A stretch of DNA of 64,000 nt, taken from the sequence record MK373782.1; one strand, given 5' to 3'. The notes below the pieces were generated by a model. The model was not told the DNA's origin. It did not search any database and saw only the letters and a list, made by a program, of their open reading frames with translations. This document shows, piece after piece, positions 8,096 through 55,621 of this stretch. This DNA comes from Escherichia phage vB_EcoM_KAW3E185. Every line of letters begins with the position of its first letter. The first letter of the stretch is position 1. Position numbers and translations under genes: made by a program.

Positions 8096-9610
8096 ATGAC
8101 AGATATTAAAGTACATTTTCACGATTTTAGCCATGTAAGAATTGAATGCGACGAAAGCGTGTTCTATGAATTACGCGACTTTTTTAGCTTTGAAGCCGAT
8201 GGGTACAAATTCAACCCGCGTTACAAATATGGGAACTGGGATGGTAGAATTAGACTTTTAGATTACAATCGTTTGTTACCATATGGACTTGTAGGTCAAA
8301 TAAAAAAGTTCTGTAACAATATGAGTTATTCTGTATGGATTGACCCTAAAATCTTTGAGACTGAAGACCTTACCAGGGAAGATTTTGACGCATGGCTTTC
8401 TAAACAAGAAATTTATTCAGGCAACTCCAAAATCGAACCACATTGGTATCAAAAAGATGCAGTATATGAAGGACTAGTTAATCGTCGTCGAATTTTAAAC
8501 CTTCCGACATCAGCAGGTAAATCACTAATCCAAGCACTTTTAGCTCGATATTATCTAGAGAACTATGAAGGTAAAATTCTCATTATCGTCCCTACAACAG
8601 CATTGACAACTCAGATGGCTAATGATTTTGTTGATTATCGCTTGTTTAGTCATTCGATGATTAAGAAAATTGGCGGTGGTGCTGATAAAGCAGACAAATC
8701 TAAAAACGACGCTCCAATTATTGTTGGCACATGGCAAACGGTAGTTAAGCAGCCTAAAGAATGGTTCTCTCAGTTCGGTATGATGATGAACGATGAATGC
8801 CACTTAGCAACAGGCAAAAGTATTTCTTCAATCATCTCAGGATTAAATAATTGCATGTTTAAATTCGGTTTATCCGGCTCATTAAGAGACGGAAAAGCCA
8901 ATGTAATGCAGTATGTAGGCATGTTCGGCGAAATCTTCCGTCCTGTTAGCACGTCTAAATTAATGGAAGACGGACAGGTAACTGAGCTTAAGATTAATAG
9001 TATTTTCCTTCGTTATCCAGACGAATTCGCCACCAAATTAAAAGGTAAAACATATCAAGAAGAAGTTAAAATTATTACCGGACTAAAACGTCGTACAAAG
9101 TGGATTGCTCAACTTTCAGTAAAATTGGCTAAGAAAGACGAGAACGCCTTTGTAATGTTTAAACACGTTACACACGGTAAAGAAATATTTGAAGCTATTA
9201 AAGAGCTTGGATACGAAAAAGTTTATTACGTATCAGGTGAAGTTGATACTGAAACACGTAACGCGCTTAAAGTCATGGCAGAAAATGGTAAAGGCATTAT
9301 TATTGTTGCATCATATGGAGTATTCTCTACTGGTATTTCAGTCAAGAATCTTCATCATGTTATTTTTGCCCATGGTGTTAAATCAAAAATTATCGTACTT
9401 CAAACCGTAGGTCGTGTGCTTCGTAAGCACGGTTCTAAAGCTGTTGCTACAGTTTGGGATCTCATAGATGACGCAGGTGTAAAACCTAAATCATTAAATA
9501 CTAAAAAGAAGTATACTCATCTTAATTACTTGTTAAAACACGGTATTGATCGTATCCAACGTTACGCTGATGAGAAATTTAACTATGTAATGAAAACAAT
9601 TAATTTATAA
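8096..9610 (+). CDS. uvsW: UvsW recombination/repair helicase (SF2)
   Basis: 504 aa, helicase motifs (PTSAGKS Walker A, DECH box), T4 position. Confidence 0.95.
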   Translation: MTDIKVHFHDFSHVRIECDESVFYELRDFFSFEADGYKFNPRYKYGNWDGRIRLLDYNRLLPYGLVGQIKKFCNNMSYSVWIDPKIFETEDLTREDFDAWLSKQEIYSGNSKIEPHWYQKDAVYEGLVNRRRILNLPTSAGKSLIQALLARYYLENYEGKILIIVPTTALTTQMANDFVDYRLFSHSMIKKIGGGADKADKSKNDAPIIVGTWQTVVKQPKEWFSQFGMMMNDECHLATGKSISSIISGLNNCMFKFGLSGSLRDGKANVMQYVGMFGEIFRPVSTSKLMEDGQVTELKINSIFLRYPDEFATKLKGKTYQEEVKIITGLKRRTKWIAQLSVKLAKKDENAFVMFKHVTHGKEIFEAIKELGYEKVYYVSGEVDTETRNALKVMAENGKGIIIVASYGVFSTGISVKNLHHVIFAHGVKSKIIVLQTVGRVLRKHGSKAVATVWDLIDDAGVKPKSLNTKKKYTHLNYLLKHGIDRIQRYADEKFNYVMKTINL

Positions 9611-9635
9611 GGGCTTCGGCCCTTAGGAGATAAAA

Positions 9636-34615: not shown

Positions 34616-35110
34616 TTAGAAATATTTTTTGTATGAATTGATTACATTTTGGTCTACATCATTATCAATTTGTGCAACAAGATAAGAACTGATTTCAACT
34701 TCTTGTGGGGCTGCTTGAACCAAATCAGAGTTCAAATACTCACGAATCCATGGAATAGGATGACGAGTTGATACGTCTTTAAGAGGACATGGCAGACCAC
34801 AACTACGCATACGAGACACGGTAAGATAATCCACAAATTCACTTAGGATTTTAACATTTAGACCTGGAAGAGCACCATCTTTAAACAAGTGTTCAGCCCA
34901 TTCTTTTTCTTGAGCGTTAACTTCCATGAAAATATCAACTGCTTCTTGTTCACACTCTTGAGCAATTTTGACCCATTCATCGCCGTCTTCGCCATCTTGT
35001 AAAGCACGAATAATATATTGAGTGCCCTTGAGGTGGAGCTGTTCATCACGAGCAATGAACTTCATAATCTTGGCATTACCTTCCATGATTTCCATATTCT
35101 TATGGAAGTT
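34616..35110 (-). CDS. nrdB: Ribonucleotide reductase beta subunit NrdB, exon 2 (upstream boundary approximate)
   Basis: R2 motif MEGNAKIMKFIARDEQLHLKGTQ; frame stays open upstream of the first ATG to about 35146, so the 5' end is a splice junction rather than a start codon. Confidence 0.7.
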   Translation of the reverse strand, partial: NFHKNMEIMEGNAKIMKFIARDEQLHLKGTQYIIRALQDGEDGDEWVKIAQECEQEAVDIFMEVNAQEKEWAEHLFKDGALPGLNVKILSEFVDYLTVSRMRSCGLPCPLKDVSTRHPIPWIREYLNSDLVQAAPQEVEISSYLVAQIDNDVDQNVINSYKKYF

Positions 35111-36214
35111 AAAGGTACCGTTATGTTCGATTGAGCTCGCTAATTCTCAACCCGTTCTCTTATGAACTGCTACATATTACTATGCAGACCAGACTATATC
35201 ACAATCCCAGAGGGATTCTCCCCATTTCGAGTCGCTTGACCCTACGTCCGAAGACTAGTCGTTGAACCTTGCTTTGCAATTGTCGCCGTGCCATCGTTTA
35301 TATGTTGATGGTGATAAATCTTTCTTATCACAATATGGACAATTCAATTGAATTCTATTTGGATTTAATTTACATCTGTCATTATGTTTTAGATAAAATC
35401 CAGGACCTTTACCAATGTGACCGCAGAAATCACATGTGATTTCTTTTTGTGCAGGATGGGTCCCGTTCTTAACCATTTCTAATGTTTTTGCTGATGTTCT
35501 TTTCTTATGGTCTTCTGACAAGAAATGATGTGAACCGTCATTTACCCGTTTTGATTGAGTTTCTGACTGCATTTTACCACCGCAAAATACATGAGTACCT
35601 TCTTTTATAGCTGCAATATTGCGTTCTTTAACTTTTGCAATATGCTCAGCTTGTTGAAAATTATGTATACCTAATGCAACTCTATTTAAATTAGATTTAC
35701 GCTGTATTTCACCGTCTAAAAGATGAAATGTACCATTTTCTATCTTAGATTTAATAGAGGCAATATTTTTAGCTCGTACTTCAGGGATATTAAAAATCTG
35801 GATTTCTCTAGATTTTGCGGCTTTAGAAGCTAATTCAGAAATTTCTTCAGGAGAATATTTCATTCTAAGCTTTATAGCATGACAAGCCTGGTAATCTTTT
35901 TGAGCTAAATGTATATCATAATGTTCCTGTATAGAAAGGCACATCAAATTATCTAAATCATTATTTTCACGGTTACCGTCTTTATGATGGATTTCGTATG
36001 TTCTTCCATCAGAATCTTTAGGTATAGGTCCGTTAGCATCTATCCAAATTTTTCTATAGTTCAATTGTGCATCCTCTTAAAAGTATAATCATATTTATAT
36101 TATACTAATTAAAGGTGCAAGCAAAACCTTGGCTGCTAGTTTTCCTATAAAGGACTTTCCAGCAATTAAAGGAGTTTTCGATAAACGTTACCGTTTAAAG
36201 GCGCATTTTACGCA
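35111..36214 (-). mobile_element. Group I self-splicing intron in nrdB with embedded HNH endonuclease ORF (boundaries ±30 nt)
   Basis: About 1.1 kb interrupts the NrdB reading frame between …RFYVSFA and …MEGNAK; contains a free-standing HNH ORF. Confidence 0.6.
35255..36064 (-). CDS. Intron-encoded HNH homing endonuclease (I-TevIII-like, intact)
   Basis: 269 aa with HNH motif YEIHHKDGNRENN and C-terminal Cys-rich zinc finger. Confidence 0.8.
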   Translation of the reverse strand: MNYRKIWIDANGPIPKDSDGRTYEIHHKDGNRENNDLDNLMCLSIQEHYDIHLAQKDYQACHAIKLRMKYSPEEISELASKAAKSREIQIFNIPEVRAKNIASIKSKIENGTFHLLDGEIQRKSNLNRVALGIHNFQQAEHIAKVKERNIAAIKEGTHVFCGGKMQSETQSKRVNDGSHHFLSEDHKKRTSAKTLEMVKNGTHPAQKEITCDFCGHIGKGPGFYLKHNDRCKLNPNRIQLNCPYCDKKDLSPSTYKRWHGDNCKARFND

Positions 36215-46136: not shown

Positions 46137-46144
46137 TATAAATA
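46137..46144 (+). promoter_or_regulatory. Late promoter TATAAATA for gene 34
   Basis: Exact TATAAATA about 30 nt upstream of gene 34 ATG. Confidence 0.65.
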
Positions 46145-51191: not shown

Positions 51192-51216
51192 GGGAGACTT
51201 CGGTCTCCCATTTTTG
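51192..51216 (+). terminator. Terminator hairpin after gene 35
   Basis: gggagac-ttcg-gtctccc followed by atttttg. Confidence 0.55.
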
Positions 51217-51224
51217 TATAAATA
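51217..51224 (+). promoter_or_regulatory. Late promoter TATAAATA for gene 36
   Basis: Exact TATAAATA 25 nt upstream of gene 36 ATG. Confidence 0.65.
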
Positions 51225-51922: not shown

Positions 51923-54900
51923 ATGGCTACATTAAAACAGATACAATTTAAAAGAAGCAAAGTGGCAGGAGTTAATCCTACTGCAGCACAATTAGCCGAA
52001 GGCGAATTAGCGATAAACTTAAAAGACCGAACTCTTTTTACTAAAGATGACCTCGGTAATATTATTAGCCTAGGCTTTGCTAAGGGCGGGGATATTAACG
52101 GTAATGTAACTCAAACTGGTGATTATTTACAAAACGGCGCGTATAATCTCAATGGAAATCAGTTTGTTTATGCAGGAAAATACATTGAATTTTTACCTAA
52201 AACCACTGGAAATGGCGCTTGGGCTAACCAACATTCGAATAAAGCCCCTATCTTTACAGATTTAAGTTCAACTACTTCTGTTTCAGAATACCATCCACTG
52301 ATTAAACAACGCTATAAAGATGGAACTTTTTCTGCCGGTACATTAGTAAACGAAGGTAGTTTTAAATTCCATTATATTGATGAAACCCGGACTTCAAAAT
52401 ACTGGACTTTTAATCGAAACGGTAATTTTCAAGTTGATTCCGGAAGTTTATTAGTATCTAATGGATATTTAGTTACTCAAAGTAATATTGAAACTAAAGC
52501 TGGTTCTTTAATTGGTCCTAAAGTTATTACCAAAAATATCAATGTGAGCACTAAATCTTGGGACACTAATATTGATACTGCATATGATTTAGTTTCATTA
52601 CCGACTTGGCAGTATACTCCAACCGAAACGGATTTGGATACTAATGGTATAAACTACCTTCGTAAATTCCGCGGACATGTTTCTTCTGCTATTTTCCATG
52701 AAGTTGCTGATGCTCGTTCAGGTAAACCACAGAATATTTCGTATTGGACGGGACGTAATGCCGAAGTTTATCAATGGTCTTATACCACAGATGGGCGTAT
52801 GTCTGTTGCTAATTCGATAGGTATAGGTCTTGCTGATGTTGGTGACCAAGGACGTTATCCATTGGTTTCGTTTGGTAAAGGTATTGCAATTGGTGACAAT
52901 GATACTGGTATTAAATGGGTTCGTGACGGCGTTATTGATTTGATTGCTAACGGGGTTTCGACCGGTACAATAAACAGTACTGGTATTAACAGCACTAAGA
53001 AATTGATGGTCGGTTATAGCCGCGATTCTGGTACTACTTGGGATTACCCAAATAACAACCAAGCAATGTTTACTGCGCGCACCGATGTTGATGGTAATAA
53101 TAACGGCGATGGACAGACTCATATCGGTTATAGCAGCAATGCCAAGATGTATCACTATTTCCGTGGTACAGGTCGTATGTCCGTTAGTATGGGCGATGGA
53201 CTTCTTGTTGAGCCCGGCATTTTAGATATTAAAACCGGTTCAAATTCGCTAAATTTGCGTGCTGATGGTACCATCGCTTCTGTTCAAACGTTAAAACTTA
53301 ATAACGGATTATATTTTAATGGTGATGGAACTAATGCTTCTCTAGTTTTTAAAGCAGCTTCAGGTATTGATGGCACTAAGCAAATAATGTGGGAAGGCGG
53401 TACTCGTGCAGGTCAGAACAAAAGTTATGTGACCGTGAAAGCATGGGGTAACTCATTTAATGCTACTGGTGATAAAGCTCGAGAAACCGTATTTGAGGTT
53501 TCTGATGGCCAAGGTTATTATTTCTATTCTCAACGCGTAGCTCCGACCGGTTCTGAAACTACAGGCCCTGTTGTAACCCAGTTCAATGGACAAGTTAATG
53601 CTAGAGGAAGTATTATTACTGACGGAAGTTTTAAAGTTAATGGATTAAGCACTTTAGTCGGTAATGTTACTATGTCTAATGGTTTGTTTGTCCAAGGTGG
53701 TTCTTCTATTACTGGACAGGTAAAAATTGGTGGAACGGCTGATGCATTAAGAATTTGGAATGCTGAATACGGTGCTATTTTCCGTCGTTCTGAAGATAAG
53801 CTTTATATTATTCCAACTCCAAAGAATGTTGGTGAATCAGGTGGTATTTCTAATTTACGTCCGTTCTATATTGCATTAAGTAACGGTAAAGTTTCTATGG
53901 ATCATGACGTAGATATAGGCGGCGGTAGATTTAAAGTAGAAGCGGCTGGAACTACGGCTGGTCAACGCATAACAGTAAATATGGCATCAGATGCTATTAG
54001 AATAAATGCCCCAACACAAGAATCTTCTAACTTCATCCAAGGACGTAAAGAAGATGTTCCGAAATGGTATTTAGGTATTGGCGATGGCGGCAACGTCGTT
54101 CGTATGCACAGTTACACCTACTCCCATGGTATTGCATTAAACTCTGATACGGTTGATATAGCTAAACCTCTTAGAATAGGTTCAACCCAGATTGGTACTG
54201 ATGGTAATATTACCGGTGGTTCTGGTAATTTTGCTAACTTGAATACAACAATAAATAACCTTAAGACAGATATTGTCTCAAGTTATCCTATTGGTGCTCC
54301 GATTCCTTGGCCTACTGATACACCTCCTGAAGGTTATGCCATAATGGAAGGTCAAACATTTGATGCTGACTTGTATCCTAAGTTAGCTGCAGTGTATCCT
54401 TCCGGCGCTCTGCCTGATATGCGTGGTCAAACTATCAAGGGTAAACCATCTGGGCGTGCTGTATTGAGTACAGAAGCAGACGGTGTTAAGTCACATAGCC
54501 ATAGTGCAAGTGCATCAAGCACAGATTTGGGTACTAAGACCACTTCTAGTTTTGATTACGGTAGCAAAACGACTTCAAGCTTTGATTATGGTACTAAGAC
54601 CAGTAATACCACCGGCAACCATAACCATACGGTAAGTGGAACTACCAGTTCAGCCGGTGCTCACCAACACGCGCGTTCAGGTCCTCAGGTCACTGCTGCA
54701 TGGGCAAACGATTTGTTTAGAGACGGGGTTACTACGATAGGTGCAAACTCATATGCTAAAATTAACTCAGGTATCACTGGTTCGACTTTAGCAACTAAGG
54801 TCGGTAAAACATCAAATGACGGTGCCCACACCCATAGTTGGTCAGGAACTACTAGCTCTACGGGTAACCATGCTCATACGGTAGGTATTGGTGCTCATAC

Positions 54901-55039
54901 CCATTCGGTAGGTATTGGTGCTCATTCTCATACTGTTGCAATTGGTTCCCATGGACATACAATAACTGTAAATGCCACAGGAAATACAGAAAACACAGTT
55001 AAAAACGTTGCTTTTAACTATATCGTTCGTTTAGCATAA
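51923..55039 (+). CDS. 37: Long tail fibre distal subunit gp37 (receptor-binding), T4-type
   Basis: 1038 aa; C-terminal His-box repeats (GNHNHT, GAHQHA, GAHTHS, GNHAHT, GAHSHT, GSHGHT) and T4-like C-terminus [11 protein letters not shown]. Confidence 0.95.
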
Positions 55040-55043
55040 GGAG

Positions 55044-55061
55044 AAGGGGCTTCGGTCCCTT
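55044..55061 (+). promoter_or_regulatory. Hairpin in the gene 38 translation initiation region (between SD and AUG)
   Basis: GGAG at 55040-55043, hairpin aaggggc-uucg-gucccuu, AUG at 55070; hairpin shortens the effective SD-AUG distance. Confidence 0.5.
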
Positions 55062-55069
55062 TTTATAAT

Positions 55070-55621
55070 ATGAAACTCTATCACTATTATTTTGACACTA
55101 AAGAATTTTACAAAGAAGAAAATTATAAACCATTAAAAGGCGTAGGATTTCCGGCTCATTCGACACCAAAAAAACCTTTAGACCCTAAAGAAGGCTATGC
55201 TGTTATATTTGACGAACGCGAGCAAGAATGGGTATATGTTGAAGACCATCGAGGAAAAACAGTATGGACTTATGATAAGCAAAAAATTGTTATTGACACT
55301 CCAGGTGCTCTTCAAAATGTTACTACAGAAGAACCTGGCGAATTTGACATTTGGACTGACGACGGGTGGAAGGAAGATGAAGCGTATAAGCGGGTAGTTC
55401 AACGTGATAAGAAAATTCATGAACTCTATAAATTATTCAGTGTTTTAAGTTCTCTTATTGATGCAGAGGTTGCTAATAGAGAAGAAAAACGAAAATTTAA
55501 AGAGCTCAAAAAATTCTTTGCCCTTTTAGAAAAACATGAACATCTTGGTGGCGAATTCCCTAAATTCCCTGACCTTGAAAGCAAATCACTTGTTAAACGA
55601 ATTATAAATATCTTTAAGTAA
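55070..55621 (+). CDS. 38: Tail fibre assembly chaperone gp38 (T4-type)
   Basis: 183 aa; MKLYHYYFDTKEFYKEENYKP… matches T4 gp38. Confidence 0.9.
   Translation: MKLYHYYFDTKEFYKEENYKPLKGVGFPAHSTPKKPLDPKEGYAVIFDEREQEWVYVEDHRGKTVWTYDKQKIVIDTPGALQNVTTEEPGEFDIWTDDGWKEDEAYKRVVQRDKKIHELYKLFSVLSSLIDAEVANREEKRKFKELKKFFALLEKHEHLGGEFPKFPDLESKSLVKRIINIFK

Follow-up and report, generated by a model that had tools for sequence, protein, structure and literature searches.

The SD and AUG of bacteriophage T4 gene 38 lie 22 nt apart, which is too far, and a hairpin restores a functional distance (PMC3014915, PMC7297116). Such sites have been termed noncontiguous or split (PMC7297116), and it has been reported for T4 that destabilization of the hairpin lowers translation and that compensatory changes restore it (PMC3014915). 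The relevant passage of PMC7297116 credits the gene 38 case to Gold 1988 and states that a positive effect "was suggested"; the direct mutational and probing work that can be traced concerned gene 25 (PMC7297116). For the gene 25 site, the pertinent section of PMC3014915 describes direct reporter and DMS evidence and cites Nivinskas et al. 1999 and Malys & Nivinskas 2009. The T4 junction itself reads TAAGGAG-A-GGGGC-UUCG-GCCCC-UUCUAAAU-AUG. The T4 RefSeq entry annotates no regulatory features in the gene 37-38 region, and our literature searches returned nothing relevant on transcript mapping of genes 37-38.

We analyzed the corresponding junction in a 64,000-nt stretch of phage DNA (the window), which belongs to a T4-like Mosigvirus. 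By sequence, the element found there is orthologous to the split initiation region of T4 gene 38 and is therefore already known. We consider it likely that it is the Mosigvirus-lineage version of that region, in which the ribosome initiates across a looped-out hairpin. A comparison of T4-type and T2-type junctions, however, provides good reason to think that the hairpin exists independently of this role.

Anatomy of the gene 37-38 junction

The ORF list around the junction comprises gp34 (1291 aa), gp35, gp36, gp37, gp38, and holin t, the last being the ORF after gp38, which matches Pfam Phage_holin_T. The junction is ~99.9% identical to that of Mosigvirus vB_EcoM_G53, and the gp37 C-terminal codons that flank it are identical to those of T4. 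Aligned by tblastn from residue 1, gp38 shares 100% identity with G53 gp38 and 67.6% with T4 gp38. The features on which the analysis relies are as follows.

51217..51224, plus strand: late promoter consensus TATAAATA, 5' of gene 36 (pattern search)
51923..55039, plus strand: gene 37, distal long tail fiber subunit, 1038 aa (ORF list; matches annotated gp37 in 200+ T4-like phages)
55037-55039, plus strand: TAA, the gene 37 stop, whose three bases also open the gene 38 SD (sequence)
55037..55043, plus strand: SD UAAGGAG, overlapping the gene 37 stop (sequence; anti-SD pairing)
55040-55043, plus strand: GGAG (sequence)
55044..55061, plus strand: core hairpin AAGGGGC-UUCG-GUCCCUU, 7 bp, with a C(UUCG)G tetraloop (folding, covariation)
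55044-55050, 55051-55054, and 55055-55061, plus strand: 5' arm AAGGGGC, loop UUCG, and 3' arm GUCCCUU of the hairpin (sequence)
55041..55064, plus strand: extended hairpin predicted for the free RNA (MFE, base-pair probabilities)
55062..55069, plus strand: spacer UUUAUAAU, 8 nt, A/U-rich (sequence)
55070..55621, plus strand: gene 38, T4-type tail fiber assembly chaperone, 183 aa, with its AUG at 55070-55072 (ORF; Pfam PF02413 Caudo_TAP)

An earlier note on this DNA had placed the GGAG, the hairpin arms, the loop, the spacer, and the ATG at 55070, and direct reading of the sequence finds every one of these coordinates exact to the base. The two spacings that it gave also agree with ours: GGAG and AUG are separated by 26 linear nt, of which 8 nt are left once the 18-nt hairpin is looped out. 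Its likening of the site to T4 gene 38 is upheld, the junction being orthologous to that between T4 genes 37 and 38 in position as well as in sequence. The note had called the gene product a chaperone/adhesin; the first term is correct, as Pfam Caudo_TAP and the T4-type gp38 assignment indicate, and the second is not, since this gp38 is not of the T2 type.

The UAAGGAG motif forms 7 contiguous pairs with the 3' end of 16S rRNA, with a duplex energy of −7.8 kcal/mol. An alternative in-frame start with a conventional SD, which the earlier note had raised as evidence that would count against it, was looked for and is absent. The gene 37 stop lies in frame with the gene 38 ATG, 30 nt upstream, and the ten intervening codons include no ATG, GTG, or TTG, so AUG 55070 is the first possible start of gene 38. 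A scan of the 13 nt before this ATG (positions −4 to −17) found no SD-like trimer (GGA, GAG, or AGG). A permissive-threshold Rfam search of 54800-55300 returned only snoR29, mir-287, and bxd_5, at chance level and all far below their gathering scores.

Predicted structure and accessibility of the SD

The 56-nt region folds with an MFE of −15.1 kcal/mol (z = −2.5), a value matched by 1 of 200 shuffles. The core stem has 7 pairs, one of which is the wobble G55049·U55056, and its UUCG loop is closed by the pair C55050-G55055. In isolation, the core hairpin has an energy of −9.4 kcal/mol and the extended hairpin −12.6 kcal/mol; constrained folding retains the core hairpin when UAAGGAG is forced to be single stranded. 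In the MFE structure, the stem extends by G55043·U55062, A55042-U55063, and G55041·U55064, all of them weak. The RNA folding that the earlier note had proposed as a check thus recovers its hairpin, but not as the whole MFE stem, which gains three pairs and runs into the SD. The note had further described a structural RNA element controlling expression: stem covariation, described below, supports the structural element, whereas nothing resembling a switch was seen and the hairpin looks constitutive. An outer 4-bp helix, CAUA/UAUG, pairs the start codon and is invariant; because it is constrained by coding, it counts neither for nor against a structural role.

In the predicted free RNA, the GAG of the SD is mostly paired, in the MFE structure and in the ensemble alike, with a probability of being unpaired of 0.01 to 0.07 here versus 0.20 to 0.57 in T4. 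Freeing UAAGGAG costs ~5.0 kcal/mol (from −15.1 to −10.1) against the −7.8 kcal/mol of SD:anti-SD pairing, so the structure may both impede and assist initiation. These values could be taken to mean that the extended stem masks the SD and that gene 38 is translated mainly after a ribosome terminating at the gene 37 UAA has melted the stem, with reinitiation 30 nt farther on. The RNAalifold consensus of 11 sequences contains the hairpin together with the two innermost extension pairs, and both pairs (one A-U, the other G·U or G-C) are present in 11/11 relatives; moreover, judging from the ribosome footprint, a terminating ribosome would necessarily cover the 5' arm, as the SD incorporates the stop. 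The pairs of the extension are weak, however, and have never changed on both sides, and the masking is much weaker in T4. The core hairpin would also refold immediately and obstruct scanning, and SD:anti-SD pairing outweighs the 3.2 kcal/mol that the extension contributes. We regard masking with translational coupling as possible but rather unlikely.

Conservation across T4-type junctions

Junctions were retrieved with anchors outside the hairpin, namely, the codons for the gp37 C terminus and for the gp38 N terminus. We read 27 T4-type loci, mainly from GenBank phage records, and these resolve into ten distinct variants. The IMG/VR search with gp38 yielded only 2 T4-type loci; the gp37 C-terminal-codon anchor added 4 contigs with a different downstream gene and a conventional SD, which are uninformative. 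The exact variant of the window occurs in 9 of 189 database records.

UAAGGAG is invariant in all 27 T4-type junctions, while the stem has changed by paired substitutions. At the position equivalent to 55049/55056, T4 and most Tequatrovirus, Gaprivervirus, and Dhakavirus phages have G-C; the window, G53, and ATK48 have G·U; and EP32a, phiD1, NBG1, HX01, phi25-307, ST0, and SP18 have A-U. The covariation data also list C-G at this position, the states within T4-type phages being G-C, G·U, and A-U. As the G·U pairs are valid only in plus-strand RNA, they point to an RNA rather than a DNA element. The loop differs among relatives with the stem kept: UUCG is replaced by UUCU in L001, ST0, and phi25-307 and by GUUA in TH58, and the C(UUCG)G loop is consequently not obligatory. 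When pairs are counted over 12 tetraloop variants, 96.4% of all cells hold a pair and 3 of the 7 pairs have changed on both sides, a count to be read with the caveat that the T2-type register was picked by a hairpin finder, which favors pairing. None of 500 shuffles did as well, and slid registers reached at most 70%.

The distance that would be left after looping out is also conserved. Residual spacing is 6 to 9 nt across the 10 variants, with linear spacings of 22 to 26 nt. In the lineage of the window, an extra A 5' of the stem is accompanied by an extra U 3' of it, which adds a base pair and does not lengthen the spacer. Apart from the small size of the element, nothing speaks for a chance juxtaposition without function; conservation, covariation, constrained spacing, and the strong intergenic excess of such hairpins documented below all contradict it, and we judge it vanishingly improbable.

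The hairpin beyond the T4-type cassette

Intercistronic C(UUCG)G hairpins in T4 mRNA go back to Tuerk et al. 1988, according to the summary in PMC4371310. The window contains 12 CUUCGG hairpins of at least 5 bp, compared to 0.31 expected and a maximum of 3 in 200 simulations. All 12 are intergenic and on the coding strand, and most are followed by U-runs. The hairpin sequence of the gene 38 junction, AAGGGGCUUCGGCCCCUU, recurs at an unrelated intergenic site, 5496-5479.

T2/T6-type phages, whose gene 38 is unrelated, offer a further comparison. We assembled 14 such junctions, from RB32 and 13 IMG/VR contigs, that include two different gp37 C-termini. In all 14, a G-C hairpin directly follows the gene 37 stop with no adjacent U-tract, and an SD (GGAG, GGAGG, or AAGGA) lies 3' of the hairpin, 5 to 8 nt from the AUG. 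The stems covary between T4-type and T2-type junctions. A hairpin in this position is thus conserved after gene 37 in every T-even phage examined, regardless of the type of gene 38 that follows, and only the T4-type cassette places the SD upstream of the hairpin and so must initiate across it. Since T2-type junctions keep the hairpin with a conventional SD after it, bridging cannot be the reason that the hairpin exists. The hairpin probably predates its use as a bridge, or it is at least not tied to that use.

The same data bear on the reading of the hairpin as a generic intercistronic element for mRNA stability or processing, either a barrier to 3' exonucleases that protects the gene 36-37 mRNA or a folding insulator, with its position between SD and AUG simply tolerated. 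The exclusively intergenic, coding-strand distribution of the 12 hairpins, the retention of the hairpin in 14/14 T2-type junctions, the covariation between the two junction types, and the copy at 5496-5479 are all as this reading would have it. What it leaves unexplained is that the SD lies upstream in every T4-type junction and that the residual spacing is so tightly held. We rate it as possible, if on the doubtful side, and note that it is compatible with bridging, in which case stability or processing would be the primary role of the hairpin.

Hairpin identity between T4 and T2-type phages was also weighed as a sign of a recombination joint for swaps of the gene 38 cassette, but it was rejected as evidence, because the same 18-mer is present at the unrelated site 5496-5479.

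Transcription through the hairpin

Consensus late promoters in this neighborhood occur only at 46137 (gene 34), 51217 (gene 36), and 55603 (gene t), and between 51900 and 55070 there are only two sites with one mismatch, at 52313 and 54250. Given that the nearest upstream consensus late promoter is at 51217, the gene 38 mRNA must be transcribed through the hairpin. This bears on the alternative that the hairpin is a leaky intrinsic terminator, or attenuator, that stops some late transcripts after gene 37 and lowers gene 38 mRNA relative to the abundant gene 37 message.

In the window, U55060-61 and the spacer together provide a U5 run 3' of the G-C portion of the stem, such that GGGGC-UUCG-GUCCC is followed by UUUUUAUAAU. 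Tails were scored separately, with a tail-score formula; on this scale, the junction scores 4.16, inside the 3.3 to 5.0 range of the window's terminator-like CUUCGG hairpins. GenBank records of G53, NBG1, and WFbE185 annotate a terminator here, as computational predictions, and the interval from the gene 35 stop to the gene 36 late promoter holds a similar hairpin (51192-51209). A consensus terminator scan of the window did not list the gene 38 hairpin, and the omission is probably an artifact, the stem having been extended into the U-run so that too few tail U residues were left.

Set against these points, the G-C core of the hairpin is weak (−6.9 kcal/mol), the AUG follows the hairpin by only 8 nt, and no consensus TATAAATA occurs between 51217 and 55070. 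The U-tract is not conserved either: the T4 spacer UUCUAAAU scores 2.28, and T2-type junctions score 1.1 to 2.5. The junction has the G-C hairpin and the U-tract of an intrinsic terminator, but it is not the end of a transcription unit followed by a gene with its own promoter. gp38 is needed for fiber assembly in T4, and for this reason termination cannot be efficient. The hairpin would then be at most a leaky, nonconserved attenuator. We think this reading unlikely, though not negligible; it, too, is compatible with bridging.

The spacer was also considered as a late promoter and rejected. In T4, CTAAATA is a 7/8 match to TATAAATA, but the transcript would begin inside gene 38; in the window, TTATAATA is a poorer match than that of T4.

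Other junctions with the same design

The gene 25 site is present in the window at 11271-11238, on the minus strand, where it reads GAGG-C-CUCAAAG-AAUU-CUUUGAG-UUAUUAUA-AUG, with a linear spacing of 27 nt and a residual spacing of 9 nt. The SD-hairpin-AUG architecture of gene 38 recurs at the nrdB-denA junction (34618-34587, minus strand), where it is conserved with covariation across T4-like phages. The denA start annotated in T4 RefSeq is a GUG that lies within the stem and gives a protein of 144 aa, compared to 136 aa from the AUG. Our literature searches found no description of a denA split site. As far as sequence architecture can tell, nrdB-denA is a third conserved site of the gene 38/25 split design.

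Six junctions in the window have a TAAGGA(G) that overlaps the stop. Four of them have spacings of 5 to 6 nt; in the other two, those of gene 38 and denA, a hairpin has been inserted. The split site looks like an ordinary stop-overlapping junction of the form UAAGGAG, 5 to 8 nt, AUG, that accommodates a generic intercistronic hairpin.

A model for initiation at gene 38

Under the bridging model, genes 36, 37, and 38 would be transcribed together from the late promoter at 51217. The sole gene 38 SD, UAAGGAG, would be presented to the ribosome 26 nt from the AUG, a distance excessive for normal initiation. The intervening 18 nt should fold immediately to the 7-bp hairpin capped by C(UUCG)G, so that 0 + 8 nt of spacer would stay single stranded. 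With its anchor at the SD, a 30S subunit could then hold AUG 55070 in its P site, with the hairpin protruding.

The sequence data show the anatomy of the junction, the lack of any other start or SD, the orthology to T4, the covariation of the stem, and the constrained residual spacing; that the ribosome uses the looped-out geometry is suggested by analogy with the T4 literature and the gene 25 experiments. The features expected of a split region can be found here: the SD lies beyond the cut-off (>~13 to 15 nt), there is no conventional SD or start, the hairpin is maintained, the residual spacing is canonical, and the locus is orthologous to T4 gene 38. The hairpin lies wholly between SD and AUG, with the qualification that the MFE stem extends into 3 nt of the SD. 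Bridging is compatible with termination, masking, and mRNA stability alike, and none of these excludes it.

We tentatively offer a broader reading, as possible rather than probable. Split sites, of which denA would be the third, may not be specific to gene 38 but may be generic tetraloop hairpins inside stop-overlapping junctions, with the primary job of the hairpin lying elsewhere, in mRNA protection or leaky termination, where it would set the ratio of upstream to downstream expression. The gene 38 hairpin of the window, with its U5 tail and SD-masking extension, would have drifted toward an attenuator by which less chaperone than fiber protein is made.

Significance and comparison with known systems

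The main value of these observations lies in annotation. Pipelines mislabel the element as a "terminator" or put a 3-nt "RBS" inside the hairpin, and recognition of split initiation sites would yield correct starts and correct expectations of expression. Their wider value is modest: by analogy, the ribosomes serving this phage group may routinely initiate across looped-out hairpins at several junctions. To the known T4 case, our analysis adds the independence of the hairpin from its bridging role, the third conserved site at nrdB-denA, and a natural series of variants. In that series, one stem position takes the states G-C, G·U, and A-U, the loop is UUCG, UUCU, GUUA, or GCAA, and the linear spacing runs from 22 to 27 nt. 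It provides material with which to test how much structure is tolerated between the SD and the start codon in the bacterial initiation complex.

Among described systems, T4 gene 38 is the closest. In both junctions, UAAGGAG merges with the gene 37 stop and is followed at once by a C(UUCG)G hairpin and then by a spacer rich in A and U; the N-terminus of gp38 is shared as well. They differ in linear spacing, which is 26 nt here versus 23 nt in T4 as we count it (22 nt in the literature), and in the stem, which has 7 bp with one G·U here and 6 Watson-Crick pairs in T4. The lineage of the window also has the U5 tail and a stronger predicted masking of the SD. The T4 gene 26-25 site shares the order of SD, stable hairpin, ~8 nt, and AUG, and likewise has no conventional SD, but its SD, GAGG, lies inside the gene 26 coding sequence, its stem is A/U-rich, and its loop is AAUU.

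Intercistronic C(UUCG)G hairpins and intrinsic terminators resemble the element in tetraloop class, closing pair, size, and intergenic place and, in the window lineage, in the U-run. Unlike them, the gene 38 hairpin precedes a gene that has no promoter of its own and whose sole SD is 5' of the hairpin; transcription must therefore read through it, and translation must cross it. The T2/T6-type junction, as in RB32, has the same G-C hairpin after gene 37, often with CUUCGG, and some contigs carry a hairpin identical to that of T4, GAGGGGCUUCGGCCCCUU. Its order, however, is stop, hairpin, SD, AUG, so that bridging is unneeded, and its adhesin gp38 is not homologous to the T4-type chaperone.

The nrdB-denA junction

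The junction between nrdB and denA (window 34618-34587, minus strand) is a third site with an architecture like that of gene 38, and it is laid out as follows.

34618-34616, minus strand: nrdB stop UAA, which begins the UAA-GGA SD of denA
34611-34598, minus strand: denA hairpin, GGGAC-UUCG-GUCCC, which follows GGA-C and is itself followed by ACUUUAUU-AUG
34589, minus strand: denA start AUG, which opens the 136-aa GIY-YIG endonuclease DenA

A conventional SD is absent from this junction in the window. The junction in T4 (L046, the T4 denA region, 3957-3926, minus strand) reads UAAGGAG-UGGGCC-GCAA-GGCCCA-UUUUAUU-AUG. Comparing the window and T4 with loci L047-L075 from other phages, we recovered 12 variants, across which the stem covaries (GGGAC, GGGCC, GGGGC, and GGGAG), the loop is UUCG, GCAA, GUAA, or CUUGA, and the SD and AUG are separated by 22 to 25 nt linearly and by a residual 6 to 10 nt with the hairpin looped out. 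Stem pairing, as a pair count over the 11 tetraloop variants, holds in 95.5% of cells, a value matched by 0 of 500 shuffles. Our literature search, limited to a searchable library, found no published description of the denA junction.

The T4 RefSeq annotation begins denA at a GUG within the hairpin, yielding a 144-aa product (L046 3952, minus strand; NC_000866.4 position 137951). This GUG shares the last G of GGAG, and its equivalent in the window is ACG; the AUG 8 codons 3' of it (136 aa) is kept in all of the relatives that we read. The RefSeq start is probably wrong.

One further open reading frame (ORF) of the nrdB region is pertinent here.

35255-36064, minus strand: 269-aa ORF with many His and Cys motifs

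This ORF, probably an HNH-type homing endonuclease, lies directly upstream of an ORF (34616-35095) whose match to the ribonucleotide reductase small chain is confined to the C-terminal portion of that chain, an adjacency which suggests that nrdB is intron-interrupted in the window and carries a full-length intron endonuclease. The T4 copy of the nrdB intron endonuclease, in contrast to this putative full-length one, is annotated as defective.

Other hairpins in the window

The split initiation site between genes 26 and 25, already documented, is likewise present in the window (11271-11238, minus strand), with a spacing of 27 nt linear and 9 nt residual.

11271-11268, minus strand: gene 25 SD GAGG, then C
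11266-11249, minus strand: gene 25 hairpin CUCAAAG-AAUU-CUUUGAG, then UUAUUAUA
11240, minus strand: gene 25 AUG, start of the 132-aa gp25

In the window we counted 12 CUUCGG-looped hairpins with stems of 5 bp or longer, where 0.31 would be expected, and all 12 are intergenic and on the coding strand.

5496-5479, minus strand: CUUCGG hairpin
9608-9625, plus strand: CUUCGG hairpin
20694-20677, minus strand: CUUCGG hairpin
25025-25008, minus strand: CUUCGG hairpin
25967-25948, minus strand: CUUCGG hairpin with GGGAGACUUCGGUCUCCC as its core
34611-34598, minus strand: CUUCGG hairpin of the denA junction
42885-42868, minus strand: CUUCGG hairpin containing GGGAGACUUCGGUCUCCC, identical to that at 51192
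51192-51209, plus strand: CUUCGG hairpin containing GGGAGACUUCGGUCUCCC
55041-55064, plus strand: CUUCGG hairpin of the gene 37-38 junction
59167-59150, minus strand: CUUCGG hairpin
60697-60672, minus strand: CUUCGG hairpin
63038-63023, minus strand: CUUCGG hairpin

The majority carry U-rich tails and resemble terminators.

The gene 37-38 junction

Public annotations of the gene 38 element disagree. Three records, including those of phages G53 (L003 1847-1860) and NBG1 (L016 418-454), label it a "terminator," and that of phage 55 (L077 99-101) places a 3-nt "ribosome_binding_site" within the hairpin, equivalent to window 55054-55056. Folding predicts a weak outer helix, CAUA/UAUG, between 55035-55038 and 55069-55072, which would pair the gene 38 start codon with the final codon of gene 37 and the stop after it, leaving the AUG with a predicted probability of being unpaired of about 0.2 to 0.27. 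Its presence in 10 to 11 of 11 relatives is uninformative because these bases are fixed by coding.

Phage TH58 (L023 350-384, an unverified record) supplies an additional variant of the junction, TAAGGAG-AGGGGC-GUUA-GCCCCU-UUAAUU-AUG, with a GUUA loop where UUCG is found elsewhere and a spacing of 22 nt linear and 6 nt residual. Phages with the T2/T6-type adhesin gp38 (RB32, L031 2729-2766, and loci L033-L045, about 355-403), like T4-type phages, carry a G-C hairpin directly 3' of the gene 37 stop, which in some contigs is exactly the GAGGGGCUUCGGCCCCUU of T4; these junctions have a conventional SD 3' of the hairpin, 5 to 8 nt before the AUG.
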